Virus record (IMG/VR): IMGVR_UViG_3300010158_000044
Reading direction: 5' to 3' (one strand)
From: an uncultured virus (IMG/VR IMGVR_UViG_3300010158_000044)
Lineage: Duplodnaviria > Heunggongvirae > Uroviricota > Caudoviricetes
DNA: 29,727 nucleotides
Positions 2,900 to 21,747 of this stretch are shown here, in pieces. A program made the translations under genes and the position numbers. The notes beneath the pieces were generated by a model. The model was not told the origin of the DNA and did no database searches. It saw only the letters and a list, made by a program, of their open reading frames with translations. Every line of letters begins with the position of its first letter. Position 1 is the first letter of the stretch.

Positions 2900-3605
2900 A
2901 GTCTGCCACCATCCTTTCTAGTAGTGTTGCTGCTGATTTGATGATCTTTCCATCACGTAAACGAAGAGGGGTTCCATCCCACTGTGTACGCTCAGGTTTA
3001 CTTCCATAGTCTCTCTTCTTAGAGCCACTACAGAAATAACAAGTTTGGCTTCTCTTTACCATATGAGACTGATCATTTCCGTGTACACACGGCAAGCTAT
3101 GCCAGTATCTATGGCCCTTAACATCCATATCAGGATGTTTTGCGCAGGTTTGAAAGCCTTTTTCATTTATTTTGACGTTGTAACAAGTATCGGTGCTGCA
3201 CCAACCATCTAATAATCCGGTCTGTGAACATTGACGACAGCCTTGTATCTTAGGCTTACTAAGAGGGGCGCCATCTTCTTGTAAATAGAACTTATGATTA
3301 CGCTGGAATACTTGAATACCTGCGTAACGTTGGATAGTAAGACGTACTGAGTGACTGCGTAATGGGTTCCAAGTACTGCCCCAATGTGTAACTGTATCTA
3401 TACCGCTGATAACAGTTGTTCCGTCTTTATGGAAGGTAACGAACTTACTTGTTCCTCCACCAAAGTGCCAACCTATATTTATGGGACTATCAGCGTCCCA
3501 TTTGTTTTCTTTCCAGATGCGAAGACCTCTATCATATAAAGGACGCTCATACTTCTTGCGACCTCCAGATAAGAAAGTCGAACCCCAATTCCAATCAGGA
3601 ATCAT
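2880..3605 (-). CDS. Hypothetical protein with a Cys/His-rich Zn-binding region (DnaJ-like CxxCxxxG)
   Basis: 241-aa ORF with CRQCSQTG and CYFCSGSK plus further Cys/His; TAATG-coupled to the upstream gene. Confidence 0.75.
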   Translation of the reverse strand: MIPDWNWGSTFLSGGRKKYERPLYDRGLRIWKENKWDADSPINIGWHFGGGTSKFVTFHKDGTTVISGIDTVTHWGSTWNPLRSHSVRLTIQRYAGIQVFQRNHKFYLQEDGAPLSKPKIQGCRQCSQTGLLDGWCSTDTCYNVKINEKGFQTCAKHPDMDVKGHRYWHSLPCVHGNDQSHMVKRSQTCYFCSGSKKRDYGSKPERTQWDGTPLRLRDGKIIKSAATLLERMVADYVEPIG

Positions 3606-3916
3606 TAATCAACCTCCTCATAAAATAATGATACTTTGCTCTGCTGTTGTAAGTCAAACATCCGCTCACGCAGACGCTCAACCTGTTTTGCTGGTTCTTC
3701 TTCCTCATAAAAAGAAAGACTAATGGGGAAGATCGGTGCTTCTTGTGCGGGTTGATTTGACAATAAGCCAATTACCATGCCAAGACCATCGATTATGCCG
3801 GCACTATAAGAGCGCATTACTTGGCTCTCTTCGAACTGGCTATCTTGATGTTCTTCCCACATTAACCGATTGATCTTGTCAATCAGTCCCTTGCGCTTAA
3901 CCAGTAACTTTCGCAT
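3605..3916 (-). CDS. Hypothetical protein
   Basis: 103-aa ORF with SD AAGGAGG. Confidence 0.75.
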   Translation of the reverse strand: MRKLLVKRKGLIDKINRLMWEEHQDSQFEESQVMRSYSAGIIDGLGMVIGLLSNQPAQEAPIFPISLSFYEEEEPAKQVERLRERMFDLQQQSKVSLFYEEVD

Positions 3917-3937
3917 ACTGGTACCTCCTTATGGGTA

Positions 3938-3963
3938 AGCCCCCGCCATTGCTGACGGGGGCT
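3938..3963 (-). other. GC-rich stem-loop with GCAA tetraloop (processing or stabilising hairpin, or weak terminator)
   Basis: Minus strand AGCCCCCGTCA-GCAA-TGGCGGGGGCT (one U-G pair); no real U-tract follows. Confidence 0.65.
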
Positions 3964-3979
3964 GGTTTGTTTGTGTTGG

Positions 3980-4414
3980 TTAGCGAATGAATGACGCCCA
4001 TGTAGATGATGAACTGATCTTGAATTCAGTATCAGTTGCACCATCAATTAGAGCGATAGCATTTTGTACTTGCTCATACTCAGATACAGCATCATGACGA
4101 GTATTTTTGTACTGTGGTTCACGCTCATTAGTTGGGCGTTCACCTAGCGCAGCCTCAGCCAATTCAATATTAAATGAATAGGTTAAAGAGAATCGATTGT
4201 GATACTTATTAGTATCAACCTCGTAAGCTTTAGCTACATTCTTTTTAGCCCATGCTTTGGCTTTGCTATCCCAAGCGTCTTGACGCTTGTTGAGAGTTGA
4301 TTGGTTCTTTTCCCATTCACTTATCTCTGCGTCCATACGCTTGAGTGTTTCGGTTAGTTTCTTGACTAAGTCTTTCTTAGCCCAAGTTGTTGCGATGACC
4401 TTGTTACTGGCCAT
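3980..4414 (-). CDS. Hypothetical coiled-coil protein
   Basis: 144-aa ORF with SD AAGGAGG. Confidence 0.8.
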   Translation of the reverse strand: MASNKVIATTWAKKDLVKKLTETLKRMDAEISEWEKNQSTLNKRQDAWDSKAKAWAKKNVAKAYEVDTNKYHNRFSLTYSFNIELAEAALGERPTNEREPQYKNTRHDAVSEYEQVQNAIALIDGATDTEFKISSSSTWASFIR

Positions 4415-4427
4415 AGCACGCCTCCTT

Positions 4428-4733
4428 TTAGTTAGGTGGTGTTACAGGGACTCCTGCAACATATTCATTCTCTTGGCTATCAATAACCACGAGAGTGTTT
4501 TCAACGTAGGCATTGCCTACTGGCGTTTCTCCAATCGTTGCGTAAACCAATGCGCTCTTCAGACTCTGAAGCTCATCTTCGGTAAGGTGCAAGAGCTTGG
4601 TTTTTGCTAAACGATCGACCATACCTATAACACGACCAGCACACTCTAGACGAGTGGCATCTTCGGTCAAGTCATCGGAATATTTTTTCTCTTTGAGGTA
4701 GTCCAAAGAGTAGACTTTGAGGTTATTAGGCAT
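4428..4733 (-). CDS. Hypothetical protein
   Basis: 101-aa ORF overlapping the upstream stop codon. Confidence 0.75.
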   Translation of the reverse strand: MPNNLKVYSLDYLKEKKYSDDLTEDATRLECAGRVIGMVDRLAKTKLLHLTEDELQSLKSALVYATIGETPVGNAYVENTLVVIDSQENEYVAGVPVTPPN

Positions 4734-5019
4734 TAGACATAGCCTCTAACTTCTCAGGATCAAATGCCGGAGTTAGAGATGTTGCTGTGTACACCTTTCC
4801 TGTTTTCCAATGAGGAATTGATTTGTGGTTCCAACGACCACCCATAGCCTTCCAAGCTTCACGCTTGGCATTACTAGCAGCACTGCGACCATTCACGTGA
4901 GTGAAGTTAGTCTTTTCTGGCTGTGCTGGGCCTGGGTTTTTCTTGCGTGCTTTACCGTTCTTACGGTCGCCCGCTGTGTTTACTTTAGGAGCTGGTGCTC
5001 CTCCTCTACCTTTTGCCAT
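4726..5019 (-). CDS. Small basic Lys/Gly-rich hypothetical protein
   Basis: 97-aa ORF (MAKGRGGAPAPK...) with SD GAAAGGGG. Confidence 0.75.
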   Translation of the reverse strand: MAKGRGGAPAPKVNTAGDRKNGKARKKNPGPAQPEKTNFTHVNGRSAASNAKREAWKAMGGRWNHKSIPHWKTGKVYTATSLTPAFDPEKLEAMSNA

Positions 5020-5039
5020 TGTCTGGCCCCTTTCGGAGG

Positions 5040-5195
5040 TTAGTTGATTGTCTCTACACGAGTGTATAGAGTGTTGATGCCATCATTCCATAGCATCAAT
5101 GCTTCGTTGCGTGTGAGGCCATAGAATAACTGGGCCTCTATAATGAACAGGTGCTTGCCGATGAATGTGTCGGGCGTTGTTTGTGTTGGTTGCAT
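5040..5195 (-). CDS. Small hypothetical protein (51 aa)
   Basis: Manual translation MQPTQTTPDTFIGKHLFIIEAQLFYGLTRNEALMLWNDGINTLYTRVETIN; TAATG-coupled to the upstream gene and fills the gap. Confidence 0.6.
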   Translation of the reverse strand: MQPTQTTPDTFIGKHLFIIEAQLFYGLTRNEALMLWNDGINTLYTRVETIN

Positions 5196-5434
5196 TAGAT
5201 ATGCCAATCTAATAGATCAGTTGTTCCCCATTTACGATAGGGTGCATCTATGATGCTATATAACTTCCACCATCTATACCCTGCTTTGGGCATAGTCTCT
5301 TCGTTCTCATACTTAATTTCATATCTTAATGCTTTATGCAATGGGTATGAAGATAAGTGGTCGCACCAATTAGCAAACCATCTAAGAGGTAATACATTTG
5401 TTTTGTGTATCGGTGTGGTTTTAAAATCTTCCAT
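5195..5434 (-). CDS. Trp-rich small hypothetical protein (79 aa)
   Basis: Start moved to ATG 5434 (MEDFKT), which follows SD GAAAGGA. Confidence 0.7.
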   Translation of the reverse strand: MEDFKTTPIHKTNVLPLRWFANWCDHLSSYPLHKALRYEIKYENEETMPKAGYRWWKLYSIIDAPYRKWGTTDLLDWHI

Positions 5435-5453
5435 TGTTATCCTTTCTATTAGA

Positions 5454-5576
5454 TGAGCAGTTTTAATCATCGTGCTCAGGATGTTTGGCGTAGGCGAGGA
5501 TACTTTTTACTCCTAGGAGCTATCACTATCGTGCCATACCAATTATGGTGAGCAGTTTAACCTCATTGCTCAGGAG
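5454..5576 (-). repeat. Twin ~30-nt repeats foldable as H-type pseudoknots (5454-5483 and 5549-5576)
   Basis: Minus strand CATCCTGAGCACGATGATTAAAACTGCTCA and CTCCTGAGCAATGAGGTTAAACTGCTCA. Confidence 0.7.
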
Positions 5577-5613
5577 TCGTGTTTTACCTCAGGTCTCGCC
5601 AGACCAACTGTCA

Positions 5614-5817
5614 CTAGTAAATTGGAGTAATCTTTACAAGATCTTCTTCCAATTTAGTAGAGACATATTTGCCACTCTCTCGAGTGGATTCGTAACAACC
5701 TTTCCAAGTTTCGTGATAGGTATCAGTACCATTGCGGACTCTGATTTCTAGCTTGGATTGGTGTGATTGTATTCTCCGACCACAGTTGTTACAGTATTGC
5801 AAGGCGGGTTTCGCCAT
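5614..5817 (-). CDS. Small putative Zn-finger protein (67 aa)
   Basis: Start at ATG 5817 after SD AAGGAGG; CNNC...HxxxxxC. Confidence 0.72.
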   Translation of the reverse strand: MAKPALQYCNNCGRRIQSHQSKLEIRVRNGTDTYHETWKGCYESTRESGKYVSTKLEEDLVKITPIY

Positions 5818-5872
5818 TGCGGTACCTCCTTTTAGCAGGTACATCCCACTACTTGTGGGAATACTAATACAG

Positions 5873-5897
5873 ATGGGGGTTGCTAGGCAACCCCCAT
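5873..5897. other. Perfect 11-bp stem-loop
   Basis: ATGGGGGTTGC-TAG-GCAACCCCCAT, with a second hairpin TCCCAC/GTGGGA just to its left. Confidence 0.65.
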
Positions 5898-5960
5898 ACT
5901 GTCAGTTATCCAGGATTAAAGAGGGATTGGACAATCAGTTCAATCCATAACTCACGATGG

Positions 5961-6077
5961 CTATGGGTATCGTAAAGGGCTCAGACCAGGGGTTCGGATA
6001 CATCTATTAGCGAACTCATTACTGAGTAAAGCGTTCGAAGCCTTAGCAACTGCTTTGCCTAATTTCTCAATACACAC
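5961..6077 (-). CDS. Possible 38-aa peptide
   Basis: GTG start after SD GAAAGGA: MCIEKLGKAVAKASNALLSNEFANRCIRTPGLSPLRYP. Confidence 0.4.
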   Translation of the reverse strand: MCIEKLGKAVAKASNALLSNEFANRCIRTPGLSPLRYP

Positions 6078-6100
6078 TCGATATTCCTTTCATTGGTTGT

Positions 6101-6331
6101 CTATACAACCAGGACACACACTAAACGAACTACAAAAGGACCTTTACTCATCTTCGGGTTTACCTTTTCCACAGCCCTGTTAGTGAGTAGATTCTAGGAA
6201 TCTATCCGATACGCCACTGCGCTCAACAACTGTGGGGAATTACAAGCATAGAACGCTAAGTTGAACAGACAACCGCTGCGTCGTGCTTATCCTTTGAGTG
6301 TAGGTGTTTAGTGTGTGTCCTGACTGTACAG
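6101..6331 (-). ncRNA. Putative ~230-nt highly structured RNA
   Basis: Perfect 17-bp inverted repeat at 6110-6126/6306-6322, extended outward by 9 bp (three G-U pairs, valid only on the minus strand) and inward by 5-bp and 7-bp helices, enclosing a multi-branch core. Confidence 0.7.
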
Positions 6332-6374
6332 GCGGGGATTGTTTGTGTTGGAGCGACAGTTAGTATTAGTTACT

Positions 6375-6617
6375 CTATGACCTTCTGCTCTCATAGTCTG
6401 AGATTGCTTCTTGTATTGTTCGTCCATAATCCCCTTGTACACACATACCTGAGTCTTCCATATATGTGTGAACAACAAAAGGGGTTACTTTATTGTGGGC
6501 TAGAAAACACAGCACTATTGTTGTGTTTGGATATATGCCCGGCTTACAGGCTAGTACAAGCCCTTTGTTAGATTCAATATTAGTACCTATACTGATAACT
6601 GTTATATCGTCAGTCAT
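6375..6617 (-). CDS. Small hypothetical phage protein
   Basis: 80-aa ORF with SD AAGGAG. Confidence 0.78.
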   Translation of the reverse strand: MTDDITVISIGTNIESNKGLVLACKPGIYPNTTIVLCFLAHNKVTPFVVHTYMEDSGMCVQGDYGRTIQEAISDYESRRS

Positions 6618-6652
6618 TGCTTATCTCCTTTTTCCATAGCCTACGCATACGC

Positions 6653-6883
6653 CTAGACCAACGCTTCTTGTTGGGTAAGGAAGTTGCTGCATTCGAGCGC
6701 CTCAATTCCTGAATCCTTTGTACCTTGGACTTGTCCTTGTTGGGATAACTGCGGAACATAGATAGTCTCCTTTATCTGCATAGCCATTACCTGTTGAATG
6801 ATTGCAAGACATAGCAAGTGCTTGTCGTGCTGAGTGATAGCACCTGCCTTACTTATCTTGGCTGTTACTTGTAGCGTGTTCAT
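6653..6883 (-). CDS. Small hypothetical protein
   Basis: 76-aa ORF with SD-like AGGAAGG. Confidence 0.6.
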   Translation of the reverse strand: MNTLQVTAKISKAGAITQHDKHLLCLAIIQQVMAMQIKETIYVPQLSQQGQVQGTKDSGIEALECSNFLTQQEALV

Positions 6884-6905
6884 TGTTGCCTTCCTGTAGA
6901 GGGAT

Positions 6906-6948
6906 AAAAGAAGGGCGGGGAGAGCCCCCTCTAGCTCTCAACCCGCCC
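6906..6948 (-). terminator. Rho-independent terminator
   Basis: Minus strand GGGCGGG-TT-GAGAGC...GCTCTC-CCCGCCC followed by TTCTTTT. Confidence 0.7.
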
Positions 6949-6982
6949 GGTGTCTACGTAGATGTAGACCTCTCACATAATG

Positions 6983-7111
6983 CTACTTATTGAGCGTCTC
7001 CTTGAGGAGTTTGACTTGCAGACGCATAGTGCCGACTTCGGCAAGGGTTGCGATACAAAACTCCTCTAACTTGCTGAGATGTTCGTCAATAATGCGGGCT
7101 AACTCTTCCAT
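6983..7111 (-). CDS. Small helical hypothetical protein (42 aa)
   Basis: Manual translation MEELARIIDEHLSKLEEFCIATLAEVGTMRLQVKLLKETLNK; SD AGGAG. Confidence 0.6.
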   Translation of the reverse strand: MEELARIIDEHLSKLEEFCIATLAEVGTMRLQVKLLKETLNK

Positions 7112-7242
7112 TGCTCGTCTCCTAACGATACGGATACATTAAACGGACCGACTTGGATAGCAATCTCTTTAGAGAATGAATACCAAGCGACATTAAGTGC
7201 AATACCCCAATTGCGTGGGGTAATTATCCAATGTAGGTGCAT
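7099..7242 (-). CDS. Small hypothetical protein (47 aa)
   Basis: Manual translation MHLHWIITPRNWGIALNVAWYSFSKEIAIQVGPFNVSVSLGDEQWKS; SD GAAAGGA. Confidence 0.6.
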   Translation of the reverse strand: MHLHWIITPRNWGIALNVAWYSFSKEIAIQVGPFNVSVSLGDEQWKS

Positions 7243-7301
7243 TGTCTTTCCTTTCTTATAGGTGGTGCGTGGGTTGTTTGTGTTGGTACGCCCCCGCCGG
7301 C

Positions 7302-7599
7302 AGAAAATTGGCGGGGAAACTTACTTTAGTGTATATAATTCAACAGCCTTAGTTTCATACTCCATAACCTGTTCAGTTATAACATAGCCAATTACATCAC
7401 TGTCTTGAGCATCTGTTATTAGTTCGGCTACAACCTTCATAGTTCCATCACACATCTCAAAGAAAAATGTGCGTGAAGCATCAGTTACCTCAGAAGGGCA
7501 TTGACGATAGAGCATCTCAAACATAGGGTTATCCTGACTTATAACAGGGTTTAATCCCATCTACTTCTCCTTTCTGTAGAAAATTGGCGGGGAAACTTA
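7302..7599. repeat. 22-bp perfect direct repeats (7302-7323 and 7578-7599) flanking one gene
   Basis: AGAAAATTGGCGGGGAAACTTA occurs twice, each copy including the TAA of a minus-strand gene. Variants at 7980-7997 and 9314-9331; core GGCGGGGA also at 6331-6338. Confidence 0.85.
7321..7560 (-). CDS. Small acidic hypothetical protein
   Basis: 79-aa ORF with SD AAAGGAG. Confidence 0.78.
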   Translation of the reverse strand: MGLNPVISQDNPMFEMLYRQCPSEVTDASRTFFFEMCDGTMKVVAELITDAQDSDVIGYVITEQVMEYETKAVELYTLK

Positions 7600-7809
7600 T
7601 TTGTTGAGGGTATAGTGTGTCTCGTATGTAGAGATAAACGAGAAGGCACCGGCACAGGTATAGCAATACACTTCAGTAGGCACGCCTAGCATAAAGGCAT
7701 CAGTACCGGAGTAGACGAGTTTGGTGGATTCACAATTAGGGACAGCACACACCTTTGGAGCGGGCTTGGTGTGTTGGGAACATACGTATGAGCCTAGGCA
7801 ACCGCACAT
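7597..7809 (-). CDS. Small Cys-rich Zn-finger-like protein
   Basis: 70-aa ORF with CxC..CxxH, CxxxxC and CxxC; abuts the upstream stop codon. Confidence 0.7.
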   Translation of the reverse strand: MCGCLGSYVCSQHTKPAPKVCAVPNCESTKLVYSGTDAFMLGVPTEVYCYTCAGAFSFISTYETHYTLNK

Positions 7810-7941
7810 TTACTTAGCCTTTGCCTTAGCCTTACAGGTCTTACATACATAAGACGAGCCGATAGTAACGAGGTGCATTACTTCAGCCCCGCGTATCTCT
7901 TGCTTGCTCTTGCACTTAGCGCAATAGATGGTTGCGTTCAT
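7810..7941 (-). CDS. Small zinc-ribbon protein (43 aa)
   Basis: Manual translation MNATIYCAKCKSKQEIRGAEVMHLVTIGSSYVCKTCKAKAKAK (two CxxC); SD GAAAGG. Confidence 0.7.
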   Translation of the reverse strand: MNATIYCAKCKSKQEIRGAEVMHLVTIGSSYVCKTCKAKAKAK

Positions 7942-7983
7942 AGCATTACCTTTCGTGGGTGGGATTGTTTATGTCGGGCGAAA

Positions 7984-8390
7984 ATCGGCGGGGATACCGA
8001 TGGCTCTCTGTGTAGATAGAGAGTGAGAGAGACATAAGGAACAGAGACCATACACGCTCACTAAGAAGCCTCAGTCATAAGTCTTATGTCTCTTCCACTA
8101 ACTACCTAGTAACTACCTGCTCATAGAGTAGCCCCCTAGCCGTAGGCCTGGTGGTACTCACAATGATCATAGATAGTTGCCGACAGTAGCCTGAATAGAC
8201 TCCCCACTCCCAATGATGGGAGATAGGGAGCCTATTCGTTAGCAGGACACCGAATTGCGGGCGTGGATTGCTCTGGGGGGCTAGACATTACACCTAGCAC
8301 TGAGCCGATTGGTCGGCATACCCCATCTATGACCATAGAGACTATGACCATAGATAGAGGCAGGGGGAGAACCTAATCCCCCCCTGCTCT
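7984..8390 (-). ncRNA. ~400-nt non-coding region dense in nested inverted repeats (putative structured RNA or regulatory region)
   Basis: Helices at 8028-8038/8083-8093, 8129-8136/8276-8283, 8193-8237 (G-U pairs on the minus strand) and 8360-8387; tandem CTATGACCATAGA. No ORF of 60 aa or more in the track. Confidence 0.55.
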
Positions 8391-8404
8391 ACCGAGTTAT
8401 GCGA

Positions 8405-8977
8405 TTAGGAGATTAACGCTGGCTCTGGTGCGCTCATAACTGCCTTGACCTTCGCTGAAGTCTTGGCAGATTCGTAACGCTTGATGACCGCCTTGAGTGC
8501 CTTGATGTAGTCATCTTGCTCTTCATCTGGTGTGAAGACAATAGACTCATCATCTAAGCGAGAAGCAGACTTAAGGAGTGCCTTGCCACCTACGCCAGAA
8601 GTATTATCTTCTTGACGCTTGGCTTGGCTTACCTTAGTTAGACGCTTGACCGCCTTCTTGTATGACTCGACAACCTTCTCGAAGGTGTCGGCTTTCATTA
8701 CAGAGCGATACACTTCGGACTTACCAAGACGAGCCATCTTGTAGACGGCTGTCTTGTTCTCCTTAGTTGCGCCGTAGGTATAAAGCAACCAACCACCCAT
8801 AGCAAGACGACGGACTTCATCAGACTTTATTAGGTCTGATGCGTCGTTTATTGTGCTGTGGGGGAATTGTGCGAATACCCCTGCCACTTTTACAAAGCGG
8901 GCGGTTACTGCTGTTTCGCTATTGCCTTCTTCTAGGAAGATAGGCTCTAACGCTGTTGCTAGTGTGTGTGTGGACAT
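8405..8977 (-). CDS. Basic helical hypothetical protein, first gene of the leftward arm
   Basis: 190-aa ORF with SD AGGAGG. Confidence 0.8.
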   Translation of the reverse strand: MSTHTLATALEPIFLEEGNSETAVTARFVKVAGVFAQFPHSTINDASDLIKSDEVRRLAMGGWLLYTYGATKENKTAVYKMARLGKSEVYRSVMKADTFEKVVESYKKAVKRLTKVSQAKRQEDNTSGVGGKALLKSASRLDDESIVFTPDEEQDDYIKALKAVIKRYESAKTSAKVKAVMSAPEPALIS

Positions 8978-9401
8978 AATACTCCCCTCCTAAGGGAGAG
9001 AGAGCAGGGCCACTCGCCCTGCTCCCACCACCCCTGCTAGACTAGACGCCTAGCAGGGACAGAAGAAGCAGAGCGCACCACGCCCGCAGTATCTCTCGGC
9101 TTCCTACCGATACATACAACGATAAAAAATACATTCGACACCTTTGTCCCCCCCTACCCTTAAGTCGTTTAAGTCGTGTTTGTCCGCCAGGTGAGACGCA
9201 GGGTTGGGACTATTTTGAGCTATACAGTGGCCAAGGCAGTGTCCGATTTGTGACTTTGATCATAGTTTGATAAGTTGTGAGCGTAAAAACGGGTAACTCT
9301 CATCATAGTTGGTGAAAAAATGGCGGGGAATATGCTAAACTTCATGCAGAGTGCTCAAAATGAGGCTCTAATTAACTAATTTCGTCTAAGGAGAAATTAA
9401 A
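8978..9401. promoter_or_regulatory. Divergent control region between the leftward and rightward arms
   Basis: Strand switch; three hairpins (8982-8998, 9002-9024, 9032-9058); tandem TAAGTCGT at about 9160-9178; ATCATAGTT twice; extended -10 TGCTAAACT at 9333-9341. Confidence 0.6.
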
Positions 9402-9851
9402 ATGGCAACATTTACTACTGGTTTAACACCAGATCGTTCAGAAATCACAATCTCAAACCTCTTTCCTCAGTTCAATCGCTGGGCAATCGGGTTTGATCCA
9501 CTATTTGACACATTTTCTCGTGTCTCTAGTGCAAAATCGAGCGGGTATCCTCCATACAACATCTTCAAATATAAGGACAATTACGTCCTAGAGATCGCTG
9601 TAGCAGGATTTGCTAAGGAAGATATCACCATCACTGTGAAAGAGCTTCAGCTGACCGTAGAAGGCGTTAAATTGCCATCTGTGGACGAGTATGTGCACAA
9701 GGGAATTGCTAACCGTGACTTCAAGCAGGACTTCGTATTAGCGGAGTATGTAGTAGTCAAGGGAGCAGAGATGAAGGATGGATTACTACGCATTAATCTA
9801 GCTCAGGAGCTACCCGAGGAGAAGAAGCCAAAGGTTATTGAAATCGCATAA
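9402..9851 (+). CDS. ibpA: Small heat-shock protein, Hsp20/IbpA family
   Basis: IGFD, YPPYNI, LEIAVAGF, YVHKGIANRDF, MKDGLLRI, PEEKKPKVIEI (IxI motif). Confidence 0.95.
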   Translation: MATFTTGLTPDRSEITISNLFPQFNRWAIGFDPLFDTFSRVSSAKSSGYPPYNIFKYKDNYVLEIAVAGFAKEDITITVKELQLTVEGVKLPSVDEYVHKGIANRDFKQDFVLAEYVVVKGAEMKDGLLRINLAQELPEEKKPKVIEIA

Positions 9852-9855
9852 TCTC

Positions 9856-9864
9856 TGGTAGAAT
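9856..9864 (+). promoter_or_regulatory. Extended -10 promoter element
   Basis: TGGTAGAAT (TGn-TAnnnT), followed by hairpin GCCTCAGTAGG/CCTACTGGGGC at 9878-9904. Confidence 0.5.
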
Positions 9865-9926
9865 ATTTAATAAGGACGCCTCAGTAGGTTATGCCTACTG
9901 GGGCTCCACAATTTTAGGAAGTAAAG

Positions 9927-10019
9927 ATGGATTTAGTAAAAGAAAAAGAAGTAAAAGAGTTAACAGAGCAAGAGAAGCAAGATCTATTCTGGCAGAGCCA
10001 AGTAAGCTTTGAGGAGTAA
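9927..10019 (+). CDS. Acidic micro-protein (30 aa)
   Basis: MDLVKEKEVKELTEQEKQDLFWQSQVSFEE; SD-like AGGAAG. Confidence 0.5.
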   Translation: MDLVKEKEVKELTEQEKQDLFWQSQVSFEE

Positions 10020-10052
10020 CTACATCAAGGCTTCCCGCCGAAAGGAGACGAA

Positions 10053-10157
10053 ATGCTAGATGTGTTATGTTATGACTGTGGAGTAATGTTCCAAGTTGAA
10101 GAAGGAACCAAGAATCCGACTAAGGCTCACAAGGAGTGCAAGAATGCCAACCTATGA
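10053..10157 (+). CDS. Micro zinc-binding protein (34 aa)
   Basis: MLDVLCYDCGVMFQVEEGTKNPTKAHKECKNANL (CxxC...HxxC); SD AAAGGAG. Confidence 0.6.
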   Translation: MLDVLCYDCGVMFQVEEGTKNPTKAHKECKNANL

Positions 10158-10314
10158 CTTTAGATGTGAACGCTGTAAGGTAGTCCATGAGATTACCCGT
10201 TCTTTTACTGATGTGAATACACCACCCTGCCCCGGGTGTGGCGATGAGCTAATCCGCATTTGGCAAGCAACCCCCGCACACTTTAAAGGTGGCGGCTGGG
10301 CTGGTAAAGAGTAG
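10144..10314 (+). CDS. FmdB-family zinc ribbon protein (56 aa)
   Basis: MPTYDFRCERC...CPGCG...FKGGGW signature; SD AAGGAG; start moved to ATG 10144. Confidence 0.9.
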   Translation: MPTYDFRCERCKVVHEITRSFTDVNTPPCPGCGDELIRIWQATPAHFKGGGWAGKE

Positions 10315-10323
10315 ACTTGACCA

Positions 10324-10779
10324 ATGGCAGCTAAAGGTGGTTTAGGTCCCGAGGGATACAAGCGTTTACAAGAAGCTGCTGATATGTTGTCGGGTAAGAA
10401 GGTTATTGCCTCCCGCAATGATGGTTTGGATATGCTTATCCCTAACCGCACTCTTGCACAGAGCAGCGATCCTGATTTTGGTATCGGGTATGAAGTTATG
10501 GATGCTAAGTCCTCAAACCCGCTAGGAAGAGCTAGAGCCCAGAGAATTGGGTATAACAAGGATCTTCAGTACTTAGCTATCCTGATGCGTGATGGAACCC
10601 TTGTAGGATATCCCGGCGTTACTGAAGATGAGTGGGATGACTACTCCAGCTTCTCTTCAACTACTGATTACATAGAAACAATTCTTTCCCGCTACTCTAA
10701 TGGTCGCTGGGAGAATAAGACTCTAGGTAACCTGCCTCAGAGCAACCCCCAAAACTTTACACAAGGCACTATCGATTAG
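10324..10779 (+). CDS. KTSC-like domain protein
   Basis: SSNP...IGYNKDLQYLAILMRDGTLVGYPGVTEDEWDDY...STTDYI follows the KTSC pattern. Confidence 0.65.
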   Translation: MAAKGGLGPEGYKRLQEAADMLSGKKVIASRNDGLDMLIPNRTLAQSSDPDFGIGYEVMDAKSSNPLGRARAQRIGYNKDLQYLAILMRDGTLVGYPGVTEDEWDDYSSFSSTTDYIETILSRYSNGRWENKTLGNLPQSNPQNFTQGTID

Positions 10780-10781
10780 TC

Positions 10782-10790
10782 TGATAGTAT
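10782..10790 (+). promoter_or_regulatory. Extended -10 promoter element
   Basis: TGATAGTAT, 26 nt upstream of the protease ATG. Confidence 0.45.
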
Positions 10791-10816
10791 TTACACCTAA
10801 CTACTGAGAGGGTTCT

Positions 10817-11383
10817 ATGACAACGCTTGTCGCTATACAAGGTGATGGCTGGTCCGTCATTGGATGCGATAGTCGTGCATCTAGTGAAGATGGTCGCTAT
10901 ATGGACCTTGCTACCTCTAAGGTTATAGATAATAACGGAATACTGATCGCAGTCTCCGGTGCTTCCCGTGGTGGAAATATTACACAGTTTGGTTGGAAAC
11001 CGCCTAAACCACGTGCTAATGAAAACTTAGATGTGTTTATTACAAATAGGTTTATACCCCAGATGCGTGAAACTTTTATAAAAGCCGGTTACGATGCCAA
11101 AGATGATGGCGATGCAGCTGGCCACGACTCTAGTCTTATCATTTCAGTTCGTGGAGTTATATACCCAATTTTTGAAGACTACTCGTGGGATCGTGAAGCC
11201 CGCAACGTTTACTACGCAGGTTCGGGTGGAGATGTAGCTCTAGGAGCACTTGAGGCTTTAGAGTACACAAAAGCTAAAAGTCCTGCAGTTGCCGAAAAAA
11301 TATTGCGTAAGGCCGTAGAGATTGCCTGTAAACATGATATTTATTCTGGCGGAAAAATCATTACACACATACAAACTGCCTAA
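10817..11383 (+). CDS. Proteasome-beta/HslV-like N-terminal-threonine (Ntn) protease
   Basis: M-T-T start, D17-S-R19, K34, G47, AGSGG and DIYSGG (numbering from Thr1). Confidence 0.9.
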   Translation: MTTLVAIQGDGWSVIGCDSRASSEDGRYMDLATSKVIDNNGILIAVSGASRGGNITQFGWKPPKPRANENLDVFITNRFIPQMRETFIKAGYDAKDDGDAAGHDSSLIISVRGVIYPIFEDYSWDREARNVYYAGSGGDVALGALEALEYTKAKSPAVAEKILRKAVEIACKHDIYSGGKIITHIQTA

Positions 11384-19947: not shown

Positions 19948-20161
19948 GTTAGCAAAAGAATTAACAAAAATACAAAAGCGTGTACAGATGCTGCCTACGG
20001 CAGAACTTCTTACATGGAGCGACCAAATAATGTATACAGTTGGTCGTAATCTATCTGCATGGCAGAAAAGTCAAAATCCTTTCTCTTTAGAGGAAGCCAG
20101 AGTGGGCGCAGAAGCGTTGCACGCAATCGTAGACGCATTAAGCGAAAGGTCGATTAAGTGA
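19928..20161 (+). CDS. Small helical protein immediately upstream of terminase (77 aa)
   Basis: Start at ATG 19928 (MFKKKSK); GTGA overlap with terL. Confidence 0.7.
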   Translation: MFKKKSKLAKELTKIQKRVQMLPTAELLTWSDQIMYTVGRNLSAWQKSQNPFSLEEARVGAEALHAIVDALSERSIK

Positions 20162-21747
20162 GCGACGAAGAAGATCTCTTTGATGAGGTTGATATCGATG
20201 AACTTGAACTTGATCTAGAACCACAAGATATAGATGTAGAAGATGCTGAAGAAGAGCTTGATGAATTATCTAAAGAGTTTGTAAAAGCGCTTGTAGATAA
20301 AATCATGCAGTTTATGGAGTTATTGGTAGGACATCAGCTTCACCCATATCAAGCCCCATTAGCTAGACGAATTATTGAATCCGTACTTATTAACGATGGT
20401 GAAGAAGTAACTGCTCTAGCCTCACGTCAATCAGGTAAATCAGAAACTATTGCTAATACTGTCTCTACTTTGATGGTAATCCTTCCACGTCTAGCCCGCA
20501 TGTACCCAGAGCTACTTGGTAAATTTGGTGACGGTTTATGGGTTGGAATGTTTGCTCCAGTTCAAAACCAGGTAGAAACCCTCTATGGTCGTACAGTTTC
20601 CCGCCTAACAAGTGACCGTGCTATGGAAATCTTTGGGGATCCAGAAGTAGACGATATTCCTACTAAAACCCCAGGCGTAACTAAAAACATTAAGCTTAAG
20701 AAGTCTGGCTCCACTCTTATGATGATGACAGCTAACCCAAGAGCTAAGATCGAATCTAAATCTTTCCATTTAATTATTATTGATGAGTGTCAAGAAGCTG
20801 ATGACTTTGTAGTTTCAAAATCTATTGCTCCTATGGGTGCGTACTATAACGCCACCATAGTAAAGACCGGAACCCCTACAACCCACAAAAATAACTTTTA
20901 TCGTGCCATCCAACTTAACAAACGACGCCAGACCGGCTCACGTGCTAAGCAGAACCATTTTCAATGGGACTGGCGAGAGGTAATTAAGTACAACGAAAAC
21001 TACGGCAAGTTCATTAAAAAGGAGATGCTACGTATTGGCGAGGACTCAGATGAGTTCCAGCTTTCATACAACTGTAAATGGTTGCTTGAACGTGGTATGT
21101 TCATTACCTCAACTATTATGGATGATCTTGGTGATACCTCACAAGAGATTGTTAAGAGTCACTTTAGATCTCCAGTAGTAGTCGGTGTGGACCCTGCTCG
21201 TAAAATGGACTCAACAGTTGTAACAGTAGTATGGGTAGACTGGGACCGACCAGATGAATACGGTTATTATGATCATAGAGTATTAAATTGGTTGGAATTA
21301 CAGGGCGATGACTGGGAAGAACAATATTTTCAAATTCAACAGTTCTTATCTAACTACGATGTGCTAGCTATTGGAGTAGATGCCAACGGTGTTGGTGACG
21401 CAGTTGCTGGTCGTCTAAAGATCCTTATGCCTCGTGCTGAGGTAATCCCTGTAACATCCAGCCCTACAGAGCAATCCAAGCGCTGGAAGCACCTTCAAGC
21501 TTTAATTCAACGTCAGCTGGTCTCATGGCCTTCCCATGCTAAAACCAGACGACTTCGTATTTGGAAGAAGTTTTACCAACAAATGGTAGATGCTGAAGTT
21601 CAGTATAAAGGCCCTAATTTTCTAGTAGCAGCCCCAGATGAGGTACATGCCCACGATGACTTCGTGGACTCACTTGCCTTAGCCTGTTCTCTTACCCAAG
21701 AGATGGTTATGCCTACTGTTGAAGTTAGCGCCAACCCGTTCTTTTAA
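20158..21747 (+). CDS. terL: Terminase large subunit
   Basis: Walker A SRQSGKS, Walker B LIIIDE, coupling motif TGT, nuclease acidic residues GVDPAR / VDANG / HDDFVDS. Confidence 0.95.
   Translation: MSDEEDLFDEVDIDELELDLEPQDIDVEDAEEELDELSKEFVKALVDKIMQFMELLVGHQLHPYQAPLARRIIESVLINDGEEVTALASRQSGKSETIANTVSTLMVILPRLARMYPELLGKFGDGLWVGMFAPVQNQVETLYGRTVSRLTSDRAMEIFGDPEVDDIPTKTPGVTKNIKLKKSGSTLMMMTANPRAKIESKSFHLIIIDECQEADDFVVSKSIAPMGAYYNATIVKTGTPTTHKNNFYRAIQLNKRRQTGSRAKQNHFQWDWREVIKYNENYGKFIKKEMLRIGEDSDEFQLSYNCKWLLERGMFITSTIMDDLGDTSQEIVKSHFRSPVVVGVDPARKMDSTVVTVVWVDWDRPDEYGYYDHRVLNWLELQGDDWEEQYFQIQQFLSNYDVLAIGVDANGVGDAVAGRLKILMPRAEVIPVTSSPTEQSKRWKHLQALIQRQLVSWPSHAKTRRLRIWKKFYQQMVDAEVQYKGPNFLVAAPDEVHAHDDFVDSLALACSLTQEMVMPTVEVSANPFF

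Follow-up and report, generated by a model that had tools for sequence, protein, structure and literature searches.

The segment at positions 6101-6331 of the window (the whole stretch of DNA that was analysed, 29,727 nucleotides from an uncultured virus) is the first domain of a structured region of about 470-500 nt, which extends on the minus strand from ~6338 to ~5820. Domain 1 is closed by a long helix, P1, which encloses in related phages either one of three unrelated interiors of ~180-230 nt or the short top of a hairpin. The reading that we favour, with a probability of roughly 0.4, is that this stem would be recognised or cut as double-stranded RNA, and would thus present or release a lineage-specific cargo RNA. 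The original prediction, made from the letters alone, was of a stand-alone non-coding RNA of ~230 nt. A structured RNA is indeed present, but a stand-alone RNA of that size is not supported, since the segment forms one domain of the larger region inside an early operon of same-strand genes.

Source DNA and gene neighbourhood

The window is phage DNA with a G+C content of ~44%. It is contained in viral record G001 (42 kb), to which a 72-kb record is 99.9% identical across the compared region. The element is also present in G003, a complete genome of 100,206 bp with terminal repeats. The head (capsid) protein is ~70% identical to that of the Streptomyces phages BRock, LuckySocke and Alone3 (~112-116 kb), and the group is a clade of ~100-kb freshwater phages that are kin of the Streptomyces phages. 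The window is organised as follows:

20158-21747, plus strand: terminase large subunit
plus strand of the window: portal, major head protein and collagen-like tail fibre
~9000 down to 1, minus strand: run of small genes with unassigned functions

The small genes that neighbour the element matched no Pfam or PHROGs family, and a blastn search with 5800-6700 against 50,697 phage records returned zero matches. Genes for an AAA_5/MoxR-type ATPase (best PHROG label 'porphyrin biosynthesis'), an Hsp20 and an HslV-like peptidase were observed within 525-1913 and 9402-11383.

Inverted repeat and fold of the window copy

The sequence CAGGACACACACTAAAC at 6110-6126 is the exact reverse complement of 6306-6322, which confirms the perfect 17-nt inverted repeat that had been claimed. 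Allowing up to 3 mismatches, this 17-mer has just two matches in the window against a chance expectation of 0.09, and two were reached in 1 of 100 shuffles. A repeat search delimited arms of 26 nt, 6101-6126 and 6306-6331, which are 88% complementary and have 179 nt between them. Minimum-energy folding of the minus strand gave -88.8 kcal/mol versus -62.7 +/- 5.1 kcal/mol for 200 shuffles (z = -5.1), none of which was as good. The ~38-bp closing helix of the original prediction is found in this fold: outside the repeat lie 9 bp formed by CUGUACAGU/GUUGUAUAG, with three G-U pairs, and inside it CUACA/UGUAG and AAGGAU/GUCCUU. All helices listed for the multi-branch core are present as well, including both arms, AAGCA..UGCUU and CCACAGU..GCUGUGG, the latter with the apical UAGAUUC-CUA-GAAUCUA. 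The plus strand of the window copy folds equally well (-88.0 kcal/mol, z = -5.1), so the strand of the RNA has to be read from relatives rather than from the window alone.

The features of the region, including the 13-mer that had been placed just 5' of the helix and is found there (6351-6339, minus strand), are listed below, broadly in the 5' to 3' direction of the minus strand:

6339..6351, minus: 13-mer CCAACACAAACAA, ending 7 nt 5' of P1; one copy of an oriented repeated word
6306..6331, minus: 5' arm of P1, CUGUACAGUCAGGACACACACUAAAC; 25 pairs in the alignment, with 99.6% of the cells pairing over 10 sequences
6101..6126, minus: 3' arm of P1, GUUUAGUGUGUGUCCUGGUUGUAUAG; the final 10 nt are shared with the anchor hairpin
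6127..6305, minus: type A cargo, from the fold and the 10-sequence alignment
6299-6303 with 6130-6134, minus: helix P1b, in the type A cargo
6289-6294 with 6136-6141, minus: helix P2, in the type A cargo
6244-6288, minus: arm P3, with the invariant loop CUGUU
6235-6243, minus: P3-P4 junction
6169-6234, minus: arm P4, with an apical hairpin at 6188-6204 and the invariant ACAG
6142-6168, minus: single-stranded stretch of the cargo, ending in the invariant GAGUAAAG
6095..6110, minus: anchor hairpin GGUUGU-AUAG-ACAACC, invariant and present once per genome; it and the base of P1 exclude each other
5906..6094, minus: domain 2, closed by P5 (~6077-6087 with 5913-5923), with several hairpins, one of them covarying (5945-5967); non-coding
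5869..5902, minus: long G+C-rich hairpin with ACAG/CUGU flanks
5843..5861, minus: covarying hairpin UUCCCAC-AAGUA-GUGGGAU
5822..5842, minus: hairpin GUACCU..AGGUAC holding the Shine-Dalgarno sequence AAGGAGG; CUAAC/GUUAG in L049, from an alignment read by eye
5614..5817, minus: gene of a 67-aa CxxC zinc-ribbon protein, starting at ATG 5815-5817 behind the Shine-Dalgarno sequence

Four forms at one locus

Searching with the 17-mers of the arms recovered a near-identical record and one relative of ~72% identity, L008, in which the arms are kept around an interior of 226 nt unrelated to the 179 nt of the window. With the zinc-ribbon protein as a query, 16 viral loci were retrieved. Seven carry the element: the near-identical record and L014, L015, L016, L017, L018 and L019, L018 being the same contig as L008. 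An 18-mer, CTGGTTGTATAGACAACC, is common to all seven and was used as a further query. Among viral sequences it gave 8 loci, all genuine relatives and one of them new (L037). Metagenomes gave 21 loci, of which 10 distinct ones were kept, 4 were set aside as exact duplicates (L042, L048 and L057 of L015; L046 of L019) and 7 were dropped as unrelated. The dropped loci comprise L040, L045, L047 and L054, which have no similarity outside the 18-mer, and L043, L055 and L060, which are located 3' of a tRNA-Ser gene in an AT-rich genome. There the 18-mer occurs, apparently by chance, 3' of tRNA-Ser(UGA) of a Kapaibacterium-like genome (L055, 45-127; L079; L043, L060); L043 and L060 differ in the DNA upstream of the same tRNA 3' end, an arrangement that resembles an integrated element. 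In 185,579 species genomes the 18-mer had 4 matches, all unrelated, and consequently no prophage copy or host was found. Because the exact 18-mer fetched 7 of the 10 type A sequences, as well as 9 of the 16 that make up the alignment of the 3' domain, its invariance in these sequences is there by construction; its conservation was judged from the protein-retrieved sequences only.

Four forms were distinguished at the locus, with lengths measured from the 13-mer to the anchor. The short form is a simple hairpin of ~60-65 nt (L017, L019, L056, L037, L041 and L053). Type A, of ~240 nt, is that of the window, L014, L016, L049, L050, L051, L052, L058 and L059, and L044 is a type A element minus its apical arms. 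Type B (289 nt, L015) and type C (L018) are represented by one distinct sequence each, so that their structures are predictions from folding energy. The base CUAUAC.../...CUGGUUGUAUAG is kept in all forms, and CAGGACACA(C/U)AC(C/U)AAAC with its partner is also kept in the three long ones. Beyond the arms, the interiors of types A, B and C have no detectable similarity, nor do they have an open reading frame in common. The flanks of the short-form loci L037 and L041 are near-identical to those of the type A loci L016, L051 and L058. Between CCTATAC and CTGGTTG, the 35 nt of the former are cleanly replaced by ~215 nt in the latter, with no flanking duplication. Otherwise near-identical phages of this set also differ by the presence or absence of a 34-nt two-hairpin module of the 3' domain (L016 and L058 versus L037, L041 and L051). 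In every form there is a near-continuous helix of at least ~20 bp: ~20 pairs in the short forms, and the 25-26 pairs of P1 together with P1b and P2 in the long ones, where the nearly invariant duplex lengthens to ~38 bp. P1 has the near-continuous duplex of about two turns (20 bp or more) that is looked for in a substrate of RNase III.

Covariation and strand

We aligned the 10 type A sequences and obtained with RNAalifold a consensus of 67 pairs, in which 98.9% of 661 cells pair. Changes on both sides were observed at 12 of the 67 pairs (26 cells), versus 5.5 pairs and 7.6 cells in column shuffles, and 0 of 500 shuffles reached the observed values. Sliding the partner by 1-3 columns left at most one compensatory pair. 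P1b, which is offset in the alignment, can form in all 10 sequences, and two of its positions covary. The independent lineages number fewer than 10, given that L049 and L052 are one base apart and that L016 is near-identical to L058. Homologues devoid of compensatory changes, the outcome that had been named as evidence against an RNA, are not what the type A sequences contain.

The structure predicted on the gene strand was used to count non-Watson-Crick cells: 60 are G-U and 2 are A-C, or ~10 A-C if the excluded A/C position of P1 is counted by eye. For the consensus, the gene strand gave an energy of -64.4 and the opposite strand one of -51.0, and the fold of L008 reaches -106.2 (z = -9.0) versus -74.0 (z = -3.2). 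Taken singly, L014 and L016 fold better on the opposite strand by a few kcal/mol. On covariation, G-U asymmetry and energies together, we read the element as a conserved structured RNA of the minus (gene) strand, the strand that had been claimed for it.

Sequence conservation is unevenly distributed. The base of P1 and its CA/UG-rich duplex of ~26 bp hardly vary in sequence. Invariant columns amount to 85% in P1, 55% in the paired cargo and 38% in the unpaired cargo. As judged from these alignments, the constraint on the sequence of P1 exceeds what pairing requires. The invariant unpaired runs of the cargo are CUGUU in the P3 loop, ACAG in the P4 internal loop, GUAA and GAGUAAAG. CUGUU and ACAG are mutually complementary, and their conservation with that of GAGUAAAG suggests tertiary or protein contacts within the cargo.

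These data also bear on whether the locus could act as DNA, being a MITE or transposon remnant, an invertible segment, a retron or an origin cruciform. Such an element would be consistent with a 26-nt inverted repeat around ~180 bp, with the equal folding of both strands of the window copy and with the presence/absence polymorphism among near-identical phages. We consider it very unlikely, because covariation in the interior and strand-specific G-U pairs are unexplained by a site in duplex DNA. The element is single copy in G001 and in every record searched, and among the viral-contig matches no locus but the orthologous one has both arm 17-mers as a pair (2 of 9 and 3 of 14 loci). Nor do the short alleles correspond to empty sites of a MITE: in the swap the hairpin retains its base and exchanges its top (35 versus ~215 nt), with neither a flanking direct repeat nor a target-site duplication at the boundaries. 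The original prediction had pointed to a MITE as what would undo it, and neither a further copy in the genomes searched nor a target-site duplication was found. An invertible segment was rejected since the interior points the same way in all 10 type A sequences and Resolvase and Phage_integrase, the serine and tyrosine recombinases, are absent from all 5 records, of which 2 are complete. A retron was rejected as well, the reverse transcriptase RVT_1 being absent in the same 5 of 5 records.

The 3' domain and the zinc-ribbon gene

About 280 nt of conserved structure, overlooked in the original prediction, lie 3' of domain 1. The order downstream of P1 is the anchor hairpin, domain 2, three hairpins and the ribosome-binding site of the zinc-ribbon gene. 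The anchor GGUUGU-AUAG-ACAACC is found 3' of P1 in every relative and in single copy in G001-G003; it is without variation in the 16-sequence alignment, and its pairing is predicted. Its first ten bases are those of the outer 3' strand of P1, and forcing the anchor hairpin over the base of P1 costs 0-2.4 kcal/mol in short forms and 2.7-9.1 kcal/mol in long forms. Over the 3' domain of the 16 sequences, 21 of 40 pairs are compensatory, versus 10.3 in shuffles (0 of 500 as high) and 6-13 in slid controls. P5, the closing helix of domain 2, is predicted by the consensus fold of 7 sequences.

The indels of domain 2, which is ~190 nt long, are not in threes, and hence this domain is not protein-coding. 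A 38-aa frame at 5961-6077 was considered, as it is partly conserved in comparison with L008, but 1-nt indels and module deletions in more relatives break it. According to the alignment, entire hairpins have been added or removed between close relatives as the 3' domain evolved. The hairpin at 5869-5902 could mark a 3' end or resemble a terminator, but the scan of 3500-9500, which reported 8 terminator-like sites, did not include it. An intrinsic terminator would have a run of U after its G+C stem; here the tail is AUUAGUAUU. No recognisable sigma-70-type promoter or canonical intrinsic terminator bounds the RNA (terminator scan of 3500-9500).

The zinc-ribbon protein belongs to no Pfam or PHROG family, and a tblastn search against 50,697 phage records gave no match. 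A length of 67 aa is likelier than the 76 aa that start at ATG 5844 in the list of open reading frames, because ATG 5817 lies behind AAGGAGG and is aligned with the starts of the relatives. A tRNA-Arg gene (anticodon TCT or CCT) was observed after the zinc-ribbon gene on the RNA strand in L049 (371-443), L053 (437-509) and L059 (398-470); the window is without it.

This arrangement raises the possibility of a cis-acting leader, in which the region would be a 5' regulatory UTR of ~500 nt of the zinc-ribbon gene. Competition between the base of P1 and the anchor, together with the G+C-rich and Shine-Dalgarno hairpins, would then set read-through, stability or translation, and the interiors would be tolerated expansion segments. 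The gene follows the RNA in 15 of the 15 relatives whose fetched DNA reaches that far, its Shine-Dalgarno sequence lies in a conserved hairpin that is changed on both sides in L049, and the invariant GGUUGUAUAG has alternative pairings that differ little in energy. Hairpin modules appear and disappear in the way expected of expansion segments, and the failure to find a promoter and terminator belonging to the RNA is equally compatible with a purely cis role. However, in the more distant relatives L021-L028 the homologous gene comes directly after the 13-mer and a Shine-Dalgarno sequence, ~20 nt apart, with none of these hairpins, which indicates that the RNA is dispensable for the gene. The pairing of cargo with the ribosome-binding site (RNAduplex) was no better than that of shuffled cargo in 9 of 9 sequences. 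Moreover, the invariant unpaired runs and branched fold of type A would be unexpected of neutral filler, and a duplex of ~26 bp is far more conserved than pairing needs. Such a leader seems to us possible, though somewhat improbable.

The oriented word beside the RNA

The 13-mer contains a word, CAACAYAAACA, that occurs in the window at 1452-1462, 2759-2769, 3968-3978, 5178-5188, 6340-6350 and 7275-7285, always on the minus strand. In each genome it is confined to one block of ~12 kb (19157-32123 in G003), with a spacing of ~0.7-1.8 kb, mostly 1-1.3 kb. Forward and reverse copies number 12 and 1 in G003, 9 and 1 in G001, 8 and 1 in G002, and 7 and 1 in G005. In these four genomes the sole inverted copy marks the far end of the block, and the others are on the gene strand. 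In G004 there are just 4 copies, of which 3 share an orientation. Open reading frames contain the word as well, and the sequence around it drifts.

The element could also be mainly a by-product of genome mosaicism. The word and the stable hairpins would be junctions of cassette exchange, for which the promoter-stem-loop cassettes of T4-type phages offer a comparison, or the hairpins would stabilise or insulate mRNA, and the RNA would have no specific function. The upstream neighbour indeed varies among relatives while the 13-mer and the base of P1 are kept, other intergenic copies of the word adjoin G+C-rich hairpins, and both the top of the hairpin and the 34-nt module are cleanly replaced between near-identical phages. 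Nevertheless, compensatory changes across a branched core of ~180 nt and its invariant loops exceed the needs of insulation, and such a structure is found in only one intergenic region of the block. We hold mosaicism as the main explanation to be unlikely.

Searches for known families and for expression

The element did not match a known RNA family, in agreement with the original prediction. Rfam 15 gave no match at gathering thresholds in the whole window and none at E <= 10 in 5800-6700. In the relatives, only tRNA reached gathering, and the matches in L015 and L018 (E >= 0.067) were far below it. ARAGORN found no tRNA or tmRNA gene in the window; a divergent tRNA-like module could escape it. 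A Y RNA was rejected since TROVE is absent in 5 of 5 records (2 complete) and no Y-RNA model of Rfam matched.

A mimic of 6S RNA or Ms1 that would sequester RNA polymerase had been offered as an example of what the element might be. Like 6S RNA and Ms1, the element has a long closing helix formed from both ends, and it lies in a phage whose capsid protein is similar to those of actinobacterial phages. In contrast to 6S RNA and Ms1, it has no Rfam match, at E <= 10 over 5800-6700 or in the relatives, and its core is a multi-branch junction instead of a rod with an open-promoter-like central bubble. Three unrelated interiors, or none, in the same stem also argue against such a mimic, which we hold to be very unlikely. 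For the other example that had been offered, a decoy of a defence protein, the analyses gave evidence neither for nor against.

A 151-nt contig from one lake-water metatranscriptome is identical to 6148-6298. It shows only that the sequence is present in an RNA library, with DNA carry-over possible. This is a single contig, and 13% of the sampled words occur in the same metatranscriptome. As assembled contigs are filtered and DNA is possibly present, the uncovered flanks are not evidence. Within the share of the literature open to full-text search we found nothing specific to the element, which does not establish it as unpublished.

Discussion

The reading that we prefer starts from P1, which occupies a fixed place in an early polycistronic transcript. 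Long duplexes of such a kind are expected to be bound and cut by RNase III, as in T7 early RNA and the stems of rRNA precursors. The long near-perfect duplex would serve as a platform recognised as double-stranded RNA, and its likeliest reader would be host RNase III or another duplex-binding protein. RNase III is encoded in 0 of 5 phage records, so that the enzyme would have to be that of the host. A cut in the duplex would separate upstream from downstream cistrons; the cut would release, or the duplex would present, a compact branched cargo RNA acting in trans. Recombination within the conserved arms would exchange the cargo among phage lineages. The base could have two states, since either the 5' arm or the ACAACC just downstream is able to pair with the invariant 3' strand. 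Covarying, branched and endowed with invariant loops, the type A cargo looks like an RNA with a partner of its own. By analogy, near-identical phages that exchange unrelated cargoes in one socket resemble phages in which accessory early genes turn over.

Several known systems have parts of this organisation. The early RNase III sites of T7, R0.3-R1.3, are irregular hairpins of ~50-60 nt between early genes, with no cargo, and the long-range stems that flank bacterial 16S and 23S rRNA enclose one fixed product. The element resembles the former in placing a long duplex between cistrons of a polycistronic transcript, and the latter in that distant strands enclose a folded RNA that cutting would free. 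It differs from both in that the enclosed RNA, ~180-230 nt long, exists in three unrelated versions and is missing from the short forms, and in that its cleavage is a prediction. Like the Y RNAs bound by Ro60/Rsr, it combines a sequence-conserved stem of the 5' and 3' ends with a variable second module, but the 5 phage records have no TROVE/Rsr gene and the window has no Rfam or ARAGORN match.

ROOL and GOLLD are large, ornate phage-associated RNAs and both are Rfam families. With them the element shares a length of several hundred nucleotides, several domains, carriage by phages and, in three relatives, a nearby tRNA gene; unlike them, it matches no model, is smaller, resides in an mRNA operon and has a swappable domain. 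The C4 RNAs of P1 and P7 and the CI RNA of P4, of ~77-79 nt, are cut from the leader of the operon that they control and pair with defined downstream sites. The element, too, is a structured RNA that shares a transcript with the genes downstream of it, but its cargo has no complementarity to the ribosome-binding site above that of shuffled controls.

A bolder version of the duplex reading is that the element represents a new class of large (~0.5 kb) multi-domain phage RNAs with a cassette site of their own. The invariant duplex of ~26 bp, at one fixed locus, would be a socket in which otherwise near-identical phages exchange unrelated, compactly folded RNAs of ~180-230 nt. Once released or displayed, each of these would act in trans, perhaps on a host protein of defence or gene expression. 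We advance this version with considerable reserve. If it is true, the element would be to RNA what the rapidly exchanged accessory genes of phage early regions are to protein.

Few structured RNAs of phages are understood, and here the structure is well supported by covariation in metagenomes and belongs to no catalogued family. Its pattern is unusual, with one sequence-invariant duplex around three unrelated interiors or none. Even as a mere leader, the region would be a new type of cis-regulatory RNA, large and modular. Should the duplex prove to be a platform for processing or recognition, the element would show how phages deliver and exchange small functional RNAs within an mRNA operon, and the cargo RNAs would be candidate host-directed effectors.
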